DNA of 64,000 nucleotides from positions 416,001-480,000 of the forward strand of contig JAXGMI010000001.1 in assembly GCA_040768745.1 (NCBI GenBank), given 5' to 3'. A model generated the notes under the pieces. It did not search any database, was not told the DNA's origin, and saw nothing but the letters and a program-made list of their open reading frames with translations. Shown here in pieces: positions 13,609 through 20,669 of the stretch. Source of the DNA: Desulfomicrobium sp. (GTDB lineage Bacteria > Desulfobacterota > Desulfovibrionia > Desulfovibrionales > Desulfomicrobiaceae). Within the stretch, counting starts at the first letter, position 1; every line of letters starts with the position of its first letter. The position numbers and the translations under genes are program-made.

Positions 13609-14523
13609 GGGGTCAGATCTTGAATCTTGAATTTTTTCGGAGCATTTCCTCACCATGGCCCGACCACTCCGCATAGAATTTCCGGGAGCCATCTACCATG
13701 TGACATCCCGGGGCAACGCCCAGGCTCCCATTTTTCTGGACGACATCGACAGGAACACCTTTCTCTCCGTCCTCGGACTGACAATGCGCCGGTTCAACGT
13801 GATCTGCCATGGGTATTGCCTGATGACCAACCACTTCCATCTCCTGCTTGAGACTCCAGACGCCAATCTGTCCAAGGCCATGCGCCAGTTCAACAGCGTC
13901 TACACGCAGGCATTCAACCGGCGGCATGCCCGGGTTGGTCACGTGCTGCAAGGGCGGTTCAAATCCATTGTCGTTGACCGGGACGCCTATCTTCTCGAAC
14001 TGTGCCGATATATTGTCCTCAACCCCGTAAGGGCCGGGATGGTCAAGGAGCCTGGAAAGTATCCATGGTCCAGTTACCGGGCCACGGCAGGGCTAGGAAA
14101 GAAACCGGATTTTCTGGCTGTGGACTGGATTCTGGAACAGTTCGGCACTGATCGCGTCCAGGCCCGGAAAGAGTACCGTCTTTTTGTCAAGGCAGGGCTG
14201 GATTCCGAATCGCCATGGAATGACCTCAAAGGACAGTGCCTGCTCGGAGACGACCCGTTTCTGGAGAAGCTTTTTCCCCTGCTCAAGGACAAAAGCGCTT
14301 TCAAGGAGATCCCTCGCATTCAGCGTTTTGCCGACCGTCCGGCCTTGGAGGAGATATTACAGGGCACAGAAGGCCGTGCGCAGCGTGACGCAGCCATCCT
14401 CAAGGCCTGCCATGTGTACGGATACACCCAGGCACACGTTGCTGCCGCAACAGGATTGCACTATTCGACGGTCAGCAAAATCATCAGGAAGATTGAATAA
14501 TTCAAGATTCAAGATCTGACCCC
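13609..14523 (+). mobile_element. Y1/HUH (RAYT-like) transposase element bounded by perfect 25-bp terminal inverted repeats
   Basis: GGGGTCAGATCTTGAATCTTGAATT (13609-13633) and its exact reverse complement (14499-14523) tightly bracket the transposase ORF. Confidence 0.85.
13655..14500 (+). CDS. REP-associated tyrosine transposase (RAYT/Y1_Tnp HUH superfamily) with C-terminal HTH
   Basis: MARPLR, YHVTSRGN, HUH motif NHFHLL, GHVLQGRFKS, catalytic-Tyr region RYIVLNP, WSSY; C-terminal HTH YTQAHVAAATGLHYSTVSKII. Confidence 0.92.
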   Translation: MARPLRIEFPGAIYHVTSRGNAQAPIFLDDIDRNTFLSVLGLTMRRFNVICHGYCLMTNHFHLLLETPDANLSKAMRQFNSVYTQAFNRRHARVGHVLQGRFKSIVVDRDAYLLELCRYIVLNPVRAGMVKEPGKYPWSSYRATAGLGKKPDFLAVDWILEQFGTDRVQARKEYRLFVKAGLDSESPWNDLKGQCLLGDDPFLEKLFPLLKDKSAFKEIPRIQRFADRPALEEILQGTEGRAQRDAAILKACHVYGYTQAHVAAATGLHYSTVSKIIRKIE

Positions 14524-14533
14524 AGGATTCTAT

Positions 14534-14824
14534 ATGAAGAAGGTCGTATTTGTCGTACTAATTGAAGAAATCGAGAACCAGGAAATATATGATACTTATA
14601 TTCGGCAGGTTGTGAAAATTATTCAACAGCACAACGGAGAATATATAGCAAGAAGCAATAAAATATTGCCTCTTTCCGGAAGAATGCCGGAACGGTCGAT
14701 AGTCATAGGGTTTGACTCAATGGAAGAAGCCCGCAAGTGCTTTTTTTCGGAAGAATATGAAAGAATAAAGCATTTAAGGGAGAACAGCACCAAGTCGAGA
14801 GCTTTTTTTATCGAAAATGAGTGA
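14534..14824 (+). CDS. DUF1330-family protein (AT-rich, foreign-looking)
   Basis: Y..YI..V...I.QHNGEYIAR...PER..VIGFDSMEEA...FFSEEY..IK.LR pattern; visibly AT-rich; ATG only 10 bp after repeat D. Confidence 0.8.
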   Translation: MKKVVFVVLIEEIENQEIYDTYIRQVVKIIQQHNGEYIARSNKILPLSGRMPERSIVIGFDSMEEARKCFFSEEYERIKHLRENSTKSRAFFIENE

Positions 14825-14848
14825 TAAGAAGAAAGCCACATAACCAAG

Positions 14849-14965
14849 CAGCACATCAAAGGTTCATACACTACCTTTCACAATATCAAGCGCACCGGCC
14901 ATCTTTTTCAGAGCAGATGTCATGCCGTTCTCGTTGAGGCCGACGCATATGCCTTCGAACCCTCC
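14849..14965 (+). pseudogene. Internal remnant of a second RAYT/Y1 transposase
   Basis: Translates QHIKGSYTTFHNIKRTGHLFQSRCHAVLVEADAYAFEPS, colinear with RQFNSVYTQAFNRRHARVGHVLQGRFKSIVVDRDAYLLELC of the intact transposase; no start codon. Confidence 0.75.
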
Positions 14966-14989
14966 ACACTAGTAAGGAAATTTTCCACA

Positions 14990-15736
14990 ATGGACATTCC
15001 ACGGATCTTCAACATCACCGAAAGTGCCCACCGCATCCACAACCCGTTCACACCCGAAAAGCTCGCCACTCTCGGCATGGCGCTGCGTCTTGAAACGGGG
15101 ACCCGAGTGCTCGACCTCGGCAGCGGTTCGGGGGAGATGCTGTGCACCTGGGCACGCGATCACGGCGTCATCGGCACCGGCATCGACATGAGCCGTTTGT
15201 TCACCGAGCAGGCGAAACTGCGCGCTGAAGAACTCGGCGTGGCCGATCGGGTCACCTTCATCCATGGCGATGCTGCAGGCTATGTCTCTGACGAGAGGGC
15301 CGGTGTGGCCGCCTGTGTCGGCGCCACCTGGATCGGCGGGGGAGCCGTCGGCACTATCGAGCTTCTGGCGCAAAGCCTCCTCCCCGGAGGGATCATCCTC
15401 ATCGGCGAACCCTACTGGCGGCAGTTGCCTCCGACAGAAGATGTTGCCAGGGGCTGTCTTGCCAACTCGATCTCCGACTTTCTCCTGCTTCCAGAACTTC
15501 TCGCGTCTTTCGGCCGCCTTGGCTACGACGTCGTGGAAATGGTTCTGGCAGACCAGGACAGCTGGGACAGGTACGAGGCGGCCAAGTGGCTGACCATGCG
15601 CCGATGGCTCGAAGCCAATCCCGACGACGAACTCGCGAAGGATGTTCGAGCCAAACTGACCTCGGAGCCCGGGCGGTACGCCGCTTTCACGCGTGAGTAC
15701 CTGGGCTGGGGTGTGTTCGCGCTGATGACACGGTGA
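14990..15736 (+). CDS. Class I SAM-dependent methyltransferase (YjhP-like)
   Basis: Motif I VLDLGSGSGE, FIHGDA, CVGATWIGGG, REYLGWGVF; resembles E. coli YjhP from recall. Confidence 0.85.
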   Translation: MDIPRIFNITESAHRIHNPFTPEKLATLGMALRLETGTRVLDLGSGSGEMLCTWARDHGVIGTGIDMSRLFTEQAKLRAEELGVADRVTFIHGDAAGYVSDERAGVAACVGATWIGGGAVGTIELLAQSLLPGGIILIGEPYWRQLPPTEDVARGCLANSISDFLLLPELLASFGRLGYDVVEMVLADQDSWDRYEAAKWLTMRRWLEANPDDELAKDVRAKLTSEPGRYAAFTREYLGWGVFALMTR

Positions 15737-15845: not shown

Positions 15846-16055
15846 TTATGACTGTACCCCTGACGCCATCCTGACAATTGAAAGGGAAAAACAAACAGAA
15901 ATGACCAGAGTAGGTCTGCGCATGAGGCGTTCGACTGTCTGCCAAGGCGTTGGAAAAGGAACCCCTCGTAGCCAGAGGACGAAATCAGCAACTCCCTGCC
16001 AGATCAGAACAACCACGACCAGAGGGATGAATGCCCGAAGGACCCCCCTCATCAT
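15846..16055 (-). pseudogene. Truncated ABC transporter permease (SsuC/TauC-like N-terminus)
   Basis: ATG overlaps the radical SAM gene stop (ATGA); MMRGVLRAFIPLVVVVLIWQGVA...VPFPTPWQTVERL resembles a permease first TM plus P.P motif, but the ORF ends after 69 aa. Confidence 0.55.
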
Positions 16056-19000
16056 AACGCCCTCAAAGAACGCCCGCCGGGGTGGAGCGGGCAGCCCGGC
16101 CCAAGGCATTCGGCGTTCTGCGAGGACTGCATGCATCGCAGGACGTGGTTGACGCTGAGAGCTACGGGCAGCAGCTTCGCAGAAAGTTCGGCCGCTTTGT
16201 TCAGGGCGATCCAGCCATCACGCTGGCAGCAGCGGGCCGCCTTGAAGCGGGCGATCTCGGCCAGCACTGCCTGGGTCACGCCCTGGACCTGCTTGCGCTC
16301 CCGGGCTTTGATCGGGTTGGCGTCGAGCAGCAGGCTGTAAGCGATGCCCACTCCCACCGCCGCACCGCAGACTCCCATGAACCCGCAGAACCCGCCGGCG
16401 ATGCCCCTGCCGCGAGAGATGGCCGTCTCGATCAATTTCTCCGACACCTCGCCTCCGAGGTTCCTGTAGGCGGTCAGGATGATGCCGGGGATCATTGCGT
16501 GGTACTCCGGTCCATGCACGGGCACTGCCGGATGCTGCCGAATCTGTACGAAGAGCTTCAGCATGTCCTTCTCAGTGCTGGAGAGACAGATATGCCTGAT
16601 GACCTCCACGGCGTCGGCCCCATGGCAGGCGTCACAGACAAAATGTCCGTTCTCGCACTGCCCGCTGGCCCGGAAAGAAAGCCCGCAATAGGCGCAGGAC
16701 CGCTCCTGGTCCCCGCGGAAATAGGTCAGGGGTGCTCCGCAGACCATGCACCCGGTGCCCTGTTTCAGCGCTGCCGTGGCGTCCGAAGCGGGAGCCCGGC
16801 TTTTTTCGGGCGGCCTGTAGCAGGCGCAGGTGTTTTCGGCCTCGACATTGAGCGTGGTCCCGTCCGAGCCGAGCTGGAAAACCTGGTCCCCCAGAAGGTC
16901 GGCCTCCTGGCGGGTCACGGCCACCGTCGCCCCCTTGGGCAGGAGCGTACCGGAGGCCAGGAGCAGGTACGGCAGCGGACCGCGGTACATGACATCGACA
17001 GAGTCTTCGTTCAGGGGCTTCTGCGCCGAAAATGTCAGGGAAAAGAAGGGATGTCCGGCCACCTGGCGATAGGGGAACCGCTTGAGCAGGCGTACGCCCG
17101 TGAAGCCCAGCTCCTCAAGCAGTGCGCAGAGGTGCGCAATGTTCAGGGCCCCAGCGATGCACTCGCCCCGAAGCATCTCGTCGTTGCGGATGGCGGCGTC
17201 GGGTTCGGACTCGCAGACCACGTCGGAGATGACCAGACGCCCGCCCGGCCGCAGTACCCGCAGAATTTCGGAGAAAGCCCGCCGCTTGTCGGTCGACAGG
17301 TTCATGACGCAATTGGACACGACCACGTCGGCCGATTCGTCCTGCAGGGGCAGGCTCTCCAGATAGCCGCCGCGGAAATCGAGGTTGTCGTATCCGAGGT
17401 TCGCGGCCACCTGAGGTTGGGCCTTGCGGGCCAGGTGGAGCATGGAGTCGAGCATGTCCACGCCGATCACGGATCCGTCCGGGCCCACAAGCCTGGAGGC
17501 AATGAAGCACTCCACGCCCGCACCACACCCCAGGTCGACCACCCTCTCGGTCGGCCGGACATCCGCATCCAGCACCGGGCTGCCGCAACCGTAGCCGCGA
17601 AAGCGGAATGCCTCGGGGACGTGCGCGATGAGATCCGGAGCGTAACAGACGGGGTTGAGAATGCCCTCCTTGGTGTCTCCGGCTGCCTGCGTGTAGAACT
17701 CCTTGATGGAGGTCAGGCTGTCCTGCTGCGCCGTGGCCAGGAGGCAGTTCGAATGCAGAAAGGCGACATTGCCGTGCGCCCCGCACGACCGCAGAGTCTC
17801 ACCCATTTGCAGCACGATTCCCGGCTTGACCGGACGGGGATGTTTTCGCGCCTCGCGGGCGATCAGCCACAGGGCCAGACGCTGATGCAGGGGTTCGTAT
17901 GGGTCGTCGCCCATGAAGCTGCCCTTGTGCACATAGCTGTGATCCATGTCGCCGCCGCCAAGGATGAAGCGCCACGGGGACTGGATTTGCGCCACGCTGG
18001 TGCCGCGAATGCGTTGCAGGATCGGACTTTCGAGCCGGGCTTCGAGGAGGCCGTCGGGCATGTCTGTGGCCAGCTCGGGTCTGCCCACCAGGGCGGCCGA
18101 TGGGTAGAGACGGCCATCGGGACCTACGGCCAGAGACTCCCAGCCTCCGGATGACCCGTCATGGATCGTGCCGGCCGGGGCGAATATCTGTGATTTCAGG
18201 GCCTCGACATTGTCGATGCCCACGCCCCGGCGCTCGGCCAGGTCTGTCGCGCGGGTGAGATTGTCGAATATGTCATCCAGTGGAGGGAACTTTTCCGGCG
18301 TCCCGCGTCCTTCCACGAAATACCACATGAAATGGACGTTCCCCGCCCCACGATCGGCCGCGAAATCAATGACATCCATCATCTGCGCGACATTGTCCCG
18401 CGTCACGCACATGGACAGCGTGAAGGGGACAGCCCGCTCGCGAAGTCCGTGCAGGGTGCGGCACAGGCGGGTGAAGGCGCCCTGGCCCCGCAGCAGATCG
18501 TGCGTGTCCCCCAGGCCGTCCAGGCTGATCTGGACGTGGAACCTCTCCGGGTCCGGCGTGTTGCGATCTAGAAAAGCAAGGAGCTTCAGGCCGTTGGTCA
18601 GCATCACGAGATGCGTGTCCCGCCTGGAAAGAATGCCATCGACTATGGCGTCTATCTCCGCATGGACAAGAGGCTCTCCGCCGGTCAGGGCGAACAGGCG
18701 GCATCCGGTTTCGTAGGACTCCTCGACAATGGCCGAAACAGAACCGGCCGACAGTTCCGTGTCATCTTTCGGCGAGCAGGTGAAAAGGCAGTGCGCGCAC
18801 GTCAAGTTGCACCGGTTGGTGACATGAAACCACAGCTCCCGCACCGGACCCAGCTCAACCTGCCTGTCTCTTCCCAGATACGAGGCTTTGCGAATCCGGG
18901 GAATCCGCGCGAGAAAGGCTTCCCCCTCAGGGCCGGCACACGTCGAATCTGAAAGCCGCTGAAGAATGGAGTCCCCTGCCGGATTAGGGACAAACCAGTG

Positions 19001-19075
19001 CGGTTCTTCGAGGCTGACAAAAATTGGCTGGCCCATGGATTCATAACGATTCCAGGAATTCAAAAATAGTTCCAT
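16052..19075 (-). CDS. Radical SAM / ArsM-like methyltransferase / Cys-rich (DUF5714-like) fusion protein
   Basis: CNLTCAHC plus LTGGEP radical SAM core; ArsM-type YGCG, DLGCGAG, SNCV and GECIAGA; C-terminal CxxC clusters, HGPEYH, CGFMGVCGAAVG, ARCCQR. Confidence 0.88.
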   Translation of the reverse strand: MELFLNSWNRYESMGQPIFVSLEEPHWFVPNPAGDSILQRLSDSTCAGPEGEAFLARIPRIRKASYLGRDRQVELGPVRELWFHVTNRCNLTCAHCLFTCSPKDDTELSAGSVSAIVEESYETGCRLFALTGGEPLVHAEIDAIVDGILSRRDTHLVMLTNGLKLLAFLDRNTPDPERFHVQISLDGLGDTHDLLRGQGAFTRLCRTLHGLRERAVPFTLSMCVTRDNVAQMMDVIDFAADRGAGNVHFMWYFVEGRGTPEKFPPLDDIFDNLTRATDLAERRGVGIDNVEALKSQIFAPAGTIHDGSSGGWESLAVGPDGRLYPSAALVGRPELATDMPDGLLEARLESPILQRIRGTSVAQIQSPWRFILGGGDMDHSYVHKGSFMGDDPYEPLHQRLALWLIAREARKHPRPVKPGIVLQMGETLRSCGAHGNVAFLHSNCLLATAQQDSLTSIKEFYTQAAGDTKEGILNPVCYAPDLIAHVPEAFRFRGYGCGSPVLDADVRPTERVVDLGCGAGVECFIASRLVGPDGSVIGVDMLDSMLHLARKAQPQVAANLGYDNLDFRGGYLESLPLQDESADVVVSNCVMNLSTDKRRAFSEILRVLRPGGRLVISDVVCESEPDAAIRNDEMLRGECIAGALNIAHLCALLEELGFTGVRLLKRFPYRQVAGHPFFSLTFSAQKPLNEDSVDVMYRGPLPYLLLASGTLLPKGATVAVTRQEADLLGDQVFQLGSDGTTLNVEAENTCACYRPPEKSRAPASDATAALKQGTGCMVCGAPLTYFRGDQERSCAYCGLSFRASGQCENGHFVCDACHGADAVEVIRHICLSSTEKDMLKLFVQIRQHPAVPVHGPEYHAMIPGIILTAYRNLGGEVSEKLIETAISRGRGIAGGFCGFMGVCGAAVGVGIAYSLLLDANPIKARERKQVQGVTQAVLAEIARFKAARCCQRDGWIALNKAAELSAKLLPVALSVNHVLRCMQSSQNAECLGPGCPLHPGGRSLRAL

Positions 19076-19382: not shown

Positions 19383-20579
19383 TCAGGCATTAACCCACCC
19401 CCAGACCGCGTGCACGGGATCGGAATGCTGGATCATGGGGTAATACCGGTCCCGGGCGTCCATGGGCCGGGGCCACCCGCGTTCGGACAAGGTATGGAGG
19501 CCCTGGAAACGGCCGCTCAACCGGAACATCTGGGCAACCATCGCCACGCGCTCAAATTCGTGCAGTTCTGTCCAAATCCGCACGGCCTGGTCCGGGAACC
19601 AGCGGTGTGAAAAAACCATGACGCACAAACCCCCCGGTTCAAGCACCCGTGCAACCTCCCGGAACACGTCCACCGGACGGGTCAGGTACTCCACGGACAG
19701 GCTGCAGACCACGGCGTCGAAAGATCCTTCCCCATAAGGCAGGACAGGGTTGGCGTTCAGGTCGTGCACGAGAAACGTTGACAAGGCCGGATTGTCGGCC
19801 AGCTCCTCCGCGTTCATGCCCAGCCCCGAGGCTGTCACCCCGTGGGGCAGGTGGGACTGCCAGCCGGCCATGAGGTCCAGGATGCGCTTCTTGCCGGTCA
19901 GGAGGCTCGCGTAGATGCCCTCGATGACGGCCCTGGCCTGGCTGTCTACGTGGGCAACCTTGCGCGGGGTGGAGTAGAACGCGGCATCGTTCCCCCCCAG
20001 CGGTTTGTCCAGGGGCCTGCCCAGACCGAAATCCATGCCCTGGGCAGGCTTCCTTTTCAGCCCCGGACCGTCGGTCAGGGCGCAGATCCAATCCTGGCAC
20101 TGTCCCCCGAACTCGGCAGTCTTGGCCCAGACATCCAACGCCGCAATGTCCAGTTCCGCGTGGACGCCAGCCAAAGGGTGATTCAGATCCACTGTCAGCG
20201 TGGTCTCGTCCATGTCGATGACGCGGAACGGGTTGATATTCTGGGGGAAAATTCCAGGCAGGCCGCGCAACACCCCCTGGGGATAGAAACGGCCCCGCAC
20301 CGGTACGATGCCCGTCATCCCGGGCTTGAAGCTGGACCGGGAAACACGCTGCACCTTGCCTTCATCACGGCACGGCAGATGGATTCCAGGCATGAAAGGC
20401 ACACGGATGGACGACCCTTTCTCCAGTCCGGTCAACGCTTTTCCCAACTCCCCTGGAAAATAATCACGCCACATGTTCACGTTCTGGGCATAGAACCTGT
20501 CTTCGTGGCAGATGTCGTGTTCCTCCCAGTGCAGACGGAAATGGACATTGGCCAGGGTGTCTGTGCAAATGGCGGTCAT
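19383..20579 (-). CDS. SlyD/FKBP-like domain fused to a class I SAM methyltransferase
   Basis: N-part VDLNHPLAG (FKBP C-terminal motif); C-part DAAFYSTPRKVAHVD, ILDLMAGWQSH, FDAVVCSLSVEYL, FSHRWFP; GGAGG RBS. Confidence 0.8.
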   Translation of the reverse strand: MTAICTDTLANVHFRLHWEEHDICHEDRFYAQNVNMWRDYFPGELGKALTGLEKGSSIRVPFMPGIHLPCRDEGKVQRVSRSSFKPGMTGIVPVRGRFYPQGVLRGLPGIFPQNINPFRVIDMDETTLTVDLNHPLAGVHAELDIAALDVWAKTAEFGGQCQDWICALTDGPGLKRKPAQGMDFGLGRPLDKPLGGNDAAFYSTPRKVAHVDSQARAVIEGIYASLLTGKKRILDLMAGWQSHLPHGVTASGLGMNAEELADNPALSTFLVHDLNANPVLPYGEGSFDAVVCSLSVEYLTRPVDVFREVARVLEPGGLCVMVFSHRWFPDQAVRIWTELHEFERVAMVAQMFRLSGRFQGLHTLSERGWPRPMDARDRYYPMIQHSDPVHAVWGWVNA

Positions 20580-20669
20580 GACTGCCTCCAATTTTTACGT
20601 AATGAGAATTTTTTCTATTAATAGGAGAACGCCGGCAGTCAAGAACCGAGCGCCCTGCGAAATTCAGAC

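Follow-up and report, generated by a model that had tools for sequence, protein, structure and literature searches.

Described systems and the fusion gene

Methyltransferases of the ArsM type are paired with an enzyme of the radical S-adenosylmethionine (SAM) class in two described systems, ArsM with ArsS for arsenosugars (NF038099 and TIGR04167; SsArsM and SsArsS of Synechocystis) and ArsM with ArsL, the latter for arsinothricin (NF040542), and ArsS and ArsL are the only radical enzymes forming carbon-arsenic (C-As) bonds that we found in the literature searched. Here we consider a gene of Desulfomicrobium sp. that encodes a CxxxCxxC radical SAM domain and an ArsM-type methyltransferase in one polypeptide and that is located at 16052..19075, on the minus strand of a 64,000-nucleotide stretch of DNA (assembly GCA_040768745.1, contig JAXGMI010000001.1, positions 416,001 to 480,000), the whole of which is called the window below. 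No paper on such a radical SAM-ArsM fusion, nor on DUF5714, the domain with which the protein ends, was found in the same literature. We propose, with a probability of roughly one half, that the protein methylates As(III) species and then adenosylates them to DDMAA or a close analogue (a 5'-deoxyadenosyl methylarsenical), and that it would thereby take the place of ArsM plus ArsS in opening an arsenosugar-type pathway of anaerobes; this activity and this product are predicted, and stand beside an architecture, a conservation, a phylogenetic placement and a co-occurrence that are observed.

The fusion resembles the ArsM-ArsS pair in combining the same two kinds of enzyme and in its common partner genes (TIGR04282, TIGR04283, TIGR04169-like, TVP38 and MerA-like), and differs from it in being a single polypeptide, in its RiPP recognition element (RRE)-like cap, its SPASM fold and its additional DUF5714 domain, and in a branch far from ArsS (RiPP, ribosomally synthesised and post-translationally modified peptide). 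By analogy, it would work like ArsM plus ArsS, while being a member of neither ArsS nor ArsL. With the ArsL system it shares a radical SAM domain followed by a cysteine tail, which in ArsL binds As(III) according to the reports cited below; the tail of the fusion, in contrast, reads C...HxNC, with no terminal RCCLKC, and its homologues have transferase neighbours. ArsM and AS3MT themselves (CmArsM, 4FR0/4KW7; CrArsM, 5EVJ; human AS3MT, 8XT7; PRK11873) have in common with the fused methyltransferase the fold, the SAM motif and the equivalents of C72, C174 and C224, whereas the fused domain is without the first ArsM cysteine, lies under the curated cut-offs, forms its own clade and is found outside ars operons. 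The RRE-SPASM peptide maturases (CteB, SkfB, SuiB, anSME, PqqE) provide the closest parallel for the radical part, with an RRE-like cap, a barrel, a SPASM fold and a leader-like peptide binding that is predicted here from models; unlike them, the fusion lacks the auxiliary-cluster cysteines, would have its own tail as the "peptide", is joined to ArsM and is 14-20% identical.

Architecture and conservation of the fusion

The gene is a single intact open frame of 1007 amino acids in which an RRE-like cap, a radical SAM core, a SPASM-like domain without cysteine, a cysteine tail, an ArsM-type methyltransferase, a Zn-ribbon-like segment and DUF5714 follow each other. Its whole-protein AlphaFold2 model has a mean pLDDT of 89 and a pTM of 0.75. 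Pfam recognises Radical_SAM at residues 85-239, a class I methyltransferase (Methyltransf_31) at 510-635 and DUF5714 at 826-997 (E 9e-58), and the top NCBIfam match of the protein is the arsenite methyltransferase PRK11873.

A first-pass annotation of the window, made from the letters alone, had described this gene as a fused radical SAM-methyltransferase-Cys-rich protein, and the motifs on which it relied are all present: CxxxCxxC at 18788-18811 (C89, C93 and C96), the methyltransferase motifs YGCG (C497), SNCV (C589) and GECIAGAL (C639), and the Cys/His motifs CMVC, CAYC, CENGHFVCDACH, HGPEYH, CGFMGVCG and RCC, the "Cys-rich region" being the named Pfam family DUF5714. It overlooked that the N-terminus is RRE-like, that the SPASM fold is Cys-free, that the tail C431...HxNC444 is invariant and that the first ArsM cysteine has been lost.

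Using a protein set clustered at 90%, we obtained 1313 homologous matches among 8000 candidates; the best 120 of these were listed, one being the window's own protein, and the other 119 align over 96-100% of the query, are 51-63% identical to it and share its three Pfam domains. Since these full-length homologues share coverage and domains, the fusion is neither a chance event nor a misassembly; it is found, conserved, in many anaerobic bacteria. All 120 aligned sequences retain C89/93/96, C431, C444, C497, C589, C639 and C752, together with seven cysteines of residues 776-817 and C897/903/949/950/981/990/995. We fetched 74 loci from GTDB genomes, whose titles include Desulfobacterales, Desulfuromonadales, Maridesulfovibrio, Chlorobium/Prosthecochloris, Sulfurospirillum, Planctomycetes and Anaerolineales. 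Within the same phylum, sampled evenly at 401 genomes, the radical and methyltransferase domains lie in one frame in 34/34 non-self matches and DUF5714 is also present in 30 of them, the four others being at a contig edge (one), split into the next open reading frame (two) or showing none (one). The exact Cys-free radical domain was not found on its own: 30 family-level short matches, among 41 listed, are by their ends single-contig fragments or frameshifts.

The methyltransferase domain

The ArsM/AS3MT-type methyltransferase occupies residues 456-690 (17006..17710, minus strand) and is of the ArsM type by sequence, fold and tree. Its best PDB sequence matches are CmArsM, CrArsM and AS3MT (E 2.5e-35 to 1e-29), the next methyltransferase outside ArsM being at 7e-11, and Foldseek places ArsM/AS3MT chains on top (all 12 rows shown for ranks 1-13). 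When aligned with CmArsM, C497, C589 and C639 fall on C72, C174 and C224, of which C174 and C224 are the arsenic-binding pair. In a tree of 39 rows, the fused domain is a clade of its own (100/99), nested among ArsM-like rows beside unstudied stand-alone ArsMs of the LCCP type; five other methyltransferases stand outside on long branches, and the deep nodes are weak. The fused domain is the sole ArsM-like domain in its genome.

The three cysteine motifs had been equated with the As(III)-binding and catalytic cysteines of ArsM, which stands for the three as such, all being kept; ArsM, however, has four conserved cysteines (PMC6138428), and the first is replaced here. The LCCP of stand-alone ArsMs reads xxNP in 11/11 DUF5714 fusions shown, L473-N474 standing for the CC in the query, so that the position of CmArsM C44 and BgArsM C30 has lost its cysteine. 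C477 was considered as this first cysteine and ruled out, as it is kept in 95/120 only and is absent in distant members. The same review indicates that CmArsM requires all four cysteines to convert As(III) to MAs(III), while the step from MAs(III) to DMAs(III) proceeds without need for C44 and C72, and ArsMs with two or three cysteines are known (PMC8649762). Judged by sequence, the domain would act as an ArsM does, while missing one ArsM feature, the first cysteine.

As a separate observation, many PRK11873-type ArsM matches (for example in G185, G296, G319, G411, G137 and G282) have one in-frame TAG or TGA in the matched stretch, which may reflect short proteins followed by a match to the tail, or recoding.

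The radical domain and its relatives

The N-terminal part begins with a probable degenerate RRE (PqqD-like) cap, residues ~1-60 (18896..19075, minus strand), modelled as three strands and then helices; this secondary structure, the alignment with CteB and the relatives speak for an RRE. Pfam finds no PqqD (PF05402) in the query and a weak match (E 0.18) in one of 12 family N-termini, and PqqD is above cut-off in three relatives (L189, P0350, P0360). The radical SAM core, residues 76-290 (18206..18850, minus strand), has the hallmarks of its class, namely CxxxCxxC, GGEP at residues 132-135 and a partial TIM barrel. It is followed by a SPASM-like domain without cysteine (17846..18205, minus strand) in which, by alignment with canonical SPASM proteins, the usual cysteine sites read D/S, YPS, GGGDxDH and DPY; residues 291-410 give no PF13186 match and have no cysteine, and the fold is retained. 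Cysteines after the core number 0 in the query versus 4-12 in most relatives with an intact SPASM domain. The cluster ligands are lost across the family while the layout is kept, with a mean conservation of 0.72 and 35 near-invariant columns.

The closest solved folds found by Foldseek are the RRE/SPASM maturases CteB, SkfB, anSME, PqqE and SuiB, the fold alignment with CteB extending over 445-464 columns. By contrast, the ArsS model TIGR04167 gives the radical domain 40.9 bits against a cut-off of 300, the C-terminal DUF3641 of ArsS has no match in the query, and the ArsL/RCCLKC model NF040542 has no match in this genome at E 0.001. The RCC of DUF5714 was considered as an ArsL-type tail and ruled out, ARCCQRD being a different motif in a separate domain with no NF040542 match. 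In a tree of 63 rows, the Cys-free forms group in one clade (100/99) whether or not they have DUF5714, ArsS lies far away (100/100, branch 1.84), and near the base the placement of the tailed relatives is not resolved. The radical domain is therefore neither ArsS nor ArsL, to whose pairs it had been likened, and belongs to a separate RRE/SPASM-type lineage.

A profile search against 1.84 billion representatives, for which 97 of 150 listed matches were looked at, revealed a wider group with intact SPASM cysteines and a PqqD-positive N-terminus, ending in or continuing through a tail P-x-I-Y-x-x-M...C...H-C-x-C. These enzymes occur alone, with ArsM after or before them, or fused to other methyltransferases or TusA; since P0334, P0339 and P0347 have ArsM first, both orders of radical-ArsM joining exist in the group. 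Five stand-alone relatives (L190:4296-5855, L191:7958-9607, L192:2011-3567, L193:2385-3944 and L194:7234-8976) end in C...GYCICF[AS], have three SPASM cysteines left only, and directly follow a TIGR04169-like AhpD gene, with TIGR04282 nearby.

Apart from this group, L195:4676-6571 and L196:6899-8746 (in G307 and G105) encode a different radical SAM domain, whose best NCBIfam radical match is the Rv1681 family, under cut-off, and which is not ArsS, fused to an LCCP-type ArsM ending in CC; this is an independent radical SAM-ArsM fusion, in genomes that are TIGR04282-positive and ArsS-negative.

The cysteine tail and its predicted docking

Between the SPASM-like domain and the methyltransferase lies a tail, PxIxxxM-x6-C431...H-x-N-C444 (17738..17824, minus strand), whose H-x-N-C is found in 120/120 close members and 17/17 distant ones. 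We identify this apparent linker, C431...HSNC444 in the query, with the C-terminal tail of the wider group and of its stand-alone relatives, to which it is homologous.

Residues 1-411 and 413-452 were folded as two chains, together with 3 controls. The complex scored 0.65 versus 0.00 for the best control, above a pass mark reached by 116/157 solved pairs and 2/215 mismatched pairs, with at least 82% contact agreement between runs and a partner pLDDT of at least 61. In this model the tail would bind the RRE and enter the barrel: the strongest contacts are those between 419-424 and the third RRE strand (27-34) and those between 437-440 and 304-313, and the interface also takes in barrel residues 80, 82, 129, 157, 159, 250-251, 288-289 and 373-379, most of them invariant or nearly so (E80, W82, L159, W251, D288, N289, G373-H379). 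Such a geometry is that of a RiPP leader plus core, supplied here in cis.

The best candidate for the arsenic site of the radical step is C431/C444 of this tail, not the C-terminal Cys-rich region to which a binding or redox role had been given and which is absent from related fusions. In ArsL, bioRxiv 10.1101/2024.02.01.577332 and 10.64898/2026.04.29.721666 describe As(III) as bound through C-terminal cysteines, with mass spectrometry in the latter placing arsenic on three tail cysteines; ArsL without RCCLKC retains SAM cleavage and loses AST-OH formation (bioRxiv 10.1101/2024.02.01.577332).

The C-terminal unit

The methyltransferase is followed by a C750-x-C752 pair (16820..16828, minus strand; kept in 118/120 and 120/120, respectively), which appears to be placed where stand-alone LCCP-type ArsMs and fusions without DUF5714 end in a vicinal-Cys tail and would be equivalent to it. 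Next come a Zn-ribbon-like segment, residues 776-817 (16625..16750, minus strand), with seven invariant cysteines, a histidine and a weak Pfam match to the PriA-type Zn ribbon at 776-799, and the helical DUF5714 domain (16085..16600, minus strand; CGFMGVCGAAVG, RCC and C-terminal cysteines), which exceeds the Pfam gathering score of PF18978 (195 bits versus 26.2) and carries seven more invariant cysteines.

DUF5714 is MbdU-like: the MbdU selenoprotein model NF045648 aligns over residues 763-996 at 129 bits against a cut-off of 600, and the CGAAVG motif is shared. Unlike MbdU, the protein is not a selenoprotein, as there is no in-frame TGA. The domain is modelled confidently (pLDDT 93); Foldseek returned no match at E 0.001, VIA-align reached a best Z of 5.9, with the split-Soret cytochrome c 1H21 at Z 5.7 (root-mean-square deviation 4.0, 121 aligned), and we therefore give it neither a fold assignment nor a claim of a new fold. 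The likeness to C_GCAxxG_C_C proteins is weak (PF09719, 19.5 bits versus a cut-off of 27, E 0.001; hhalign probability 3.7), as is the link to split-Soret cytochrome c, and a search of the ESM Atlas gave DUF5714 clusters only. The unit probably has a redox or metal-binding role, and we regard it as accessory because related fusions exist without it, ending in CC. In a Paraclostridium plasmid (NZ_CP094934.1, L206:9727-10449), a stand-alone DUF5714 gene is convergent with arsR-metallophosphoesterase-arsM, and DUF5714 is found on two further Paraclostridium plasmids.

Gene neighbourhoods and co-occurrence

Homologues of the fusion show an arsenosugar-type context. A TIGR04282-like gene lies within the flank in 11/74 and 9/19 fetched loci and a TVP38/VTT gene in 22/74 and 9/19, several of these loci being close kin; TIGR04282 is adjacent in 20/93 homologue loci, an association also known for ArsS. 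The stand-alone relatives share their fetched stretch with TIGR04282 in 5/5 loci, with the order TIGR04282, TIGR04169-like (109 bits, cut-off 120), radical SAM, TIGR04283 in L192, and a canonical ArsM-AhpD-ArsS-MerA-like cluster (L201, read by eye) has such neighbours too. The tie to metalloids proposed in the first-pass annotation is thus not refuted, since the methyltransferase is of the ArsM type and the homologues lie in this context.

Among carrier genomes (50 of the 74 loci), TIGR04282 is over cut-off in 47/50 and ArsS in 6/50. The 401-genome sample comprises 35 genomes with the fusion family, 143 with ArsS and 211 with TIGR04282; this arsenosugar-type transferase is present in 35/35 carriers against a baseline of 211/401, and ArsS in 3/35 against 12.5 expected. 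When the 258 genomes without ArsS are taken alone, TIGR04282 is found in 32/32 carriers versus 43/226 others.

APH-family kinases, one of them methylthioribose-kinase-like, are found next to the TIGR04282/04283 pair or as fusions with DUF2064 in the Sulfurospirillum loci L024, L029, L040 (with a MIP channel downstream too) and L047 and in L210:7177-8133 and L212:7252-8982, and are a candidate sugar-activation step; the kinase that one relative has next to its transferases was not found in the present genome. In Pelobacter-type loci (L039, L041, L043, L048, L051), an ADP-ribosylglycohydrolase and/or TVP38 gene precedes the fusion, divergent from a DraT/DraG block.

The Desulfomicrobium locus

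The Desulfomicrobium genome encodes no ArsS; a TIGR04283/TIGR04282 pair is located 130 kb from the gene, at a feoB-greA site conserved in the genus, and a TVP38 plus CCG Fe-S pair lies on another contig. An Rv1681-like alternative enzyme was found in 0/26 genus relatives, a set that had no positive control. Upstream on the same strand, 307 bp away, is a gene for a 402-aa FKBP/SlyD-like plus methyltransferase-like protein (19383-20591, minus strand). A local operon was considered and rejected, as neither this gene nor the downstream convergent methyltransferase recurs beside homologues. An IS200-like (Y1) transposase (13655-14500, plus strand) and a low-GC stretch (14000-14999, 0.48) lie 1-2 kb past the 3' end, which, together with the presence of the gene in only 2/16 genomes of the genus, suggests a recent gain. 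No sigma-70-like promoter was found at the locus, where terminator-like matches are uninformative, and identical pieces of the gene are scattered in contigs of three RNA runs, a set without a silent control.

Proposed function and alternative explanations

In the proposed mechanism, C589 and C639 would bind an As(III) species for methylation by SAM, as in homologous ArsMs; because the first ArsM cysteine is missing, the fusion may favour turning MAs(III) into DMAs(III), or may use a thiol supplied by the tail or by C750/C752. The methylarsenite would then be handed to the tail, of which 419-424 are predicted to pair with RRE strand 27-34 in the manner of a RiPP leader and 436-446, including C444, to thread into the barrel, where, as in ArsS, a 5'-deoxyadenosyl radical would add to the tail-bound arsenic. 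Adenosylation by ArsS needs no net reductant, according to PMC13598754 and PMC8552651, and a reaction of this kind would be consistent with the missing SPASM auxiliary clusters. The Zn-ribbon/DUF5714 unit, absent from related fusions, may serve as a metal or Fe-S redox module re-reducing disulfides or As(V), and the TIGR04282/TIGR04283 proteins, if their NCBIfam labels apply, would carry the arseno-ribose further. More tentatively, and at odds we consider less than even, a RiPP-maturase scaffold may have become a third, independent C-As radical enzyme by dropping its auxiliary Fe-S clusters and letting its peptide-recognition element clamp its own Cys tail as leader and swinging arm, so that methylarsenite is shuttled from the ArsM site to the barrel at the head of an anaerobic arseno-glycoconjugate pathway in Desulfobacterota, Chlorobi, Campylobacterota and Planctomycetes.

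Several observations weigh against methylation followed by adenosylation. The methyltransferase is under every curated ArsM cut-off (PRK11873 208/263, NF038099 125/400, NF040538 163/500 bits), these being whole-protein scores for other subfamilies, and the first ArsM cysteine, as read from the alignments, is absent. The tail profiles of intact-SPASM relatives and fusions do match (probability 91.7, E 8e-7), which speaks for a shared tail, but selecting the tails by motif makes this comparison partly circular, and a direct comparison with the tails of L190-194 was not significant (E 0.99). The passing complex score may reflect solved RiPP maturase-peptide structures (CteB, SuiB, ChlB), and the tail is covalently attached anyway. 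Some same-tail relatives are fused to methyltransferases other than ArsM (P0341, P0342, P0358) or to TusA (P0360). Fisher p-values for the co-occurrence are overstated, kin not being independent, and TIGR04282 occurs without ArsS or the fusion family in 43 sampled genomes: a related or alternative radical enzyme was found for about eight (in five a stand-alone tailed relative near the transferases, in one a further ArsM fusion of the group, and in two a different radical enzyme fused with ArsM), and about 35/43 remained without a recognised radical partner after search. As an ArsM-like gene is present in only 84/140 ArsS-only genomes, the NCBIfam label "arsenosugar" may be too narrow and the transferase system perhaps not for arsenic only. 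Around the present copy, no arsenic or arsenosugar gene flanks it in the window, and neither acr3-arsC-arsR (with arsC and arsR read by eye) nor the transferase pair is linked to it. In the genus (16 genomes), TIGR04282 is found in 12, the fusion gene in 2 and ArsS in 0, ten of the 12 TIGR04282-positive genomes having neither; with the conserved site of the pair, these counts mean that the presence of the transferases here may be ancestry alone.

Among the alternatives, a different C-As product, by transfer of 3-amino-3-carboxypropyl (ACP) as in ArsL or by coupling of arsenic to another carbon partner, would yield an undescribed organoarsenical; we think this rather unlikely. It would agree with a radical domain unrelated to ArsS (whose clade is 100/100 on a long branch), with a barrel having its own family-specific invariant residues, with the retention of ArsS in 3/35 carriers and with a Cys tail that is, by the reports cited, the strategy of ArsL. 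The genome, however, has no match to the ArsL model, the neighbouring sugar transferases fit a ribosyl product and the near-exclusion with ArsS suggests the same step.

A reading in which the enzyme acts on some other thiophilic element (Sb, Se or Te, or a sulfur species) and the transferases make a non-arsenic glycoconjugate is unlikely in our estimation. Hosts that are largely sulfur-cycling anaerobes, neighbours that include rhodaneses, CCG Fe-S proteins, MerA-like reductases and sulfonate-type ABC transporters, the resemblance of DUF5714 to the selenoprotein MbdU and the 56/140 ArsS-only genomes without an ArsM-like gene would all suit it. It has to contend with the three ArsM cysteines retained by the fused methyltransferase in 120/120, with the 40 plasmid matches listed, of which all 37 annotated are arsenite methyltransferases or have no annotation under the match, and with the DUF5714 gene that adjoins, convergently, an arsR-arsM operon (in one lineage, Paraclostridium).

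The tail may also be a built-in precursor peptide, the RRE/SPASM enzyme modifying its own tail or a partner protein (by a thioether, by oxidation of Cys as in anSME, or by an As-C adduct that stays on the protein) while the methyltransferase acts afterwards or separately. Peptide maturases are indeed the nearest solved folds, the model lays out the tail as leader plus core, and in same-tail relatives the fusion partner is TusA or another methyltransferase; yet a self-substrate allows a single turnover, the ligands that hold the auxiliary clusters in SPASM maturases have been lost, no conserved small precursor frame recurs among the neighbours (frames of 70 aa or more were screened), and the repeated ArsM fusion and transferase profile are left unaccounted for; we hold this to be unlikely. 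Finally, a decayed or regulatory radical module on a plain detoxifying ArsM, as the loss of the SPASM cysteines and the truncated RRE of the query might suggest, is very improbable given CxxxCxxC in 120/120, a highly conserved Cys-free SPASM region, a gene outside ars operons and a profile that tracks the transferases and excludes ArsS.

Significance

New here are the phylum-wide contingency with its counter-example at the level of the genus, the missing first cysteine, the connection of the linker with the tail in which stand-alone relatives end, and the docking of this tail on RRE and barrel that the model predicts. As the protein is a single soluble polypeptide, the hand-off from ArsM to the radical domain is directly testable, and it offers a route towards a function for DUF5714. 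If methylation and adenosylation are confirmed, the RiPP recognition module would have a use not seen before, with an RRE delivering a small-molecule substrate by holding a tail in cis, and a third radical C-As lineage would exist in 35/401 sampled genomes of the phylum, plus green sulfur bacteria and others; anaerobes of sediments, aquifers and digesters would then make complex organoarsenicals that are missed by surveys based on arsS and arsM.

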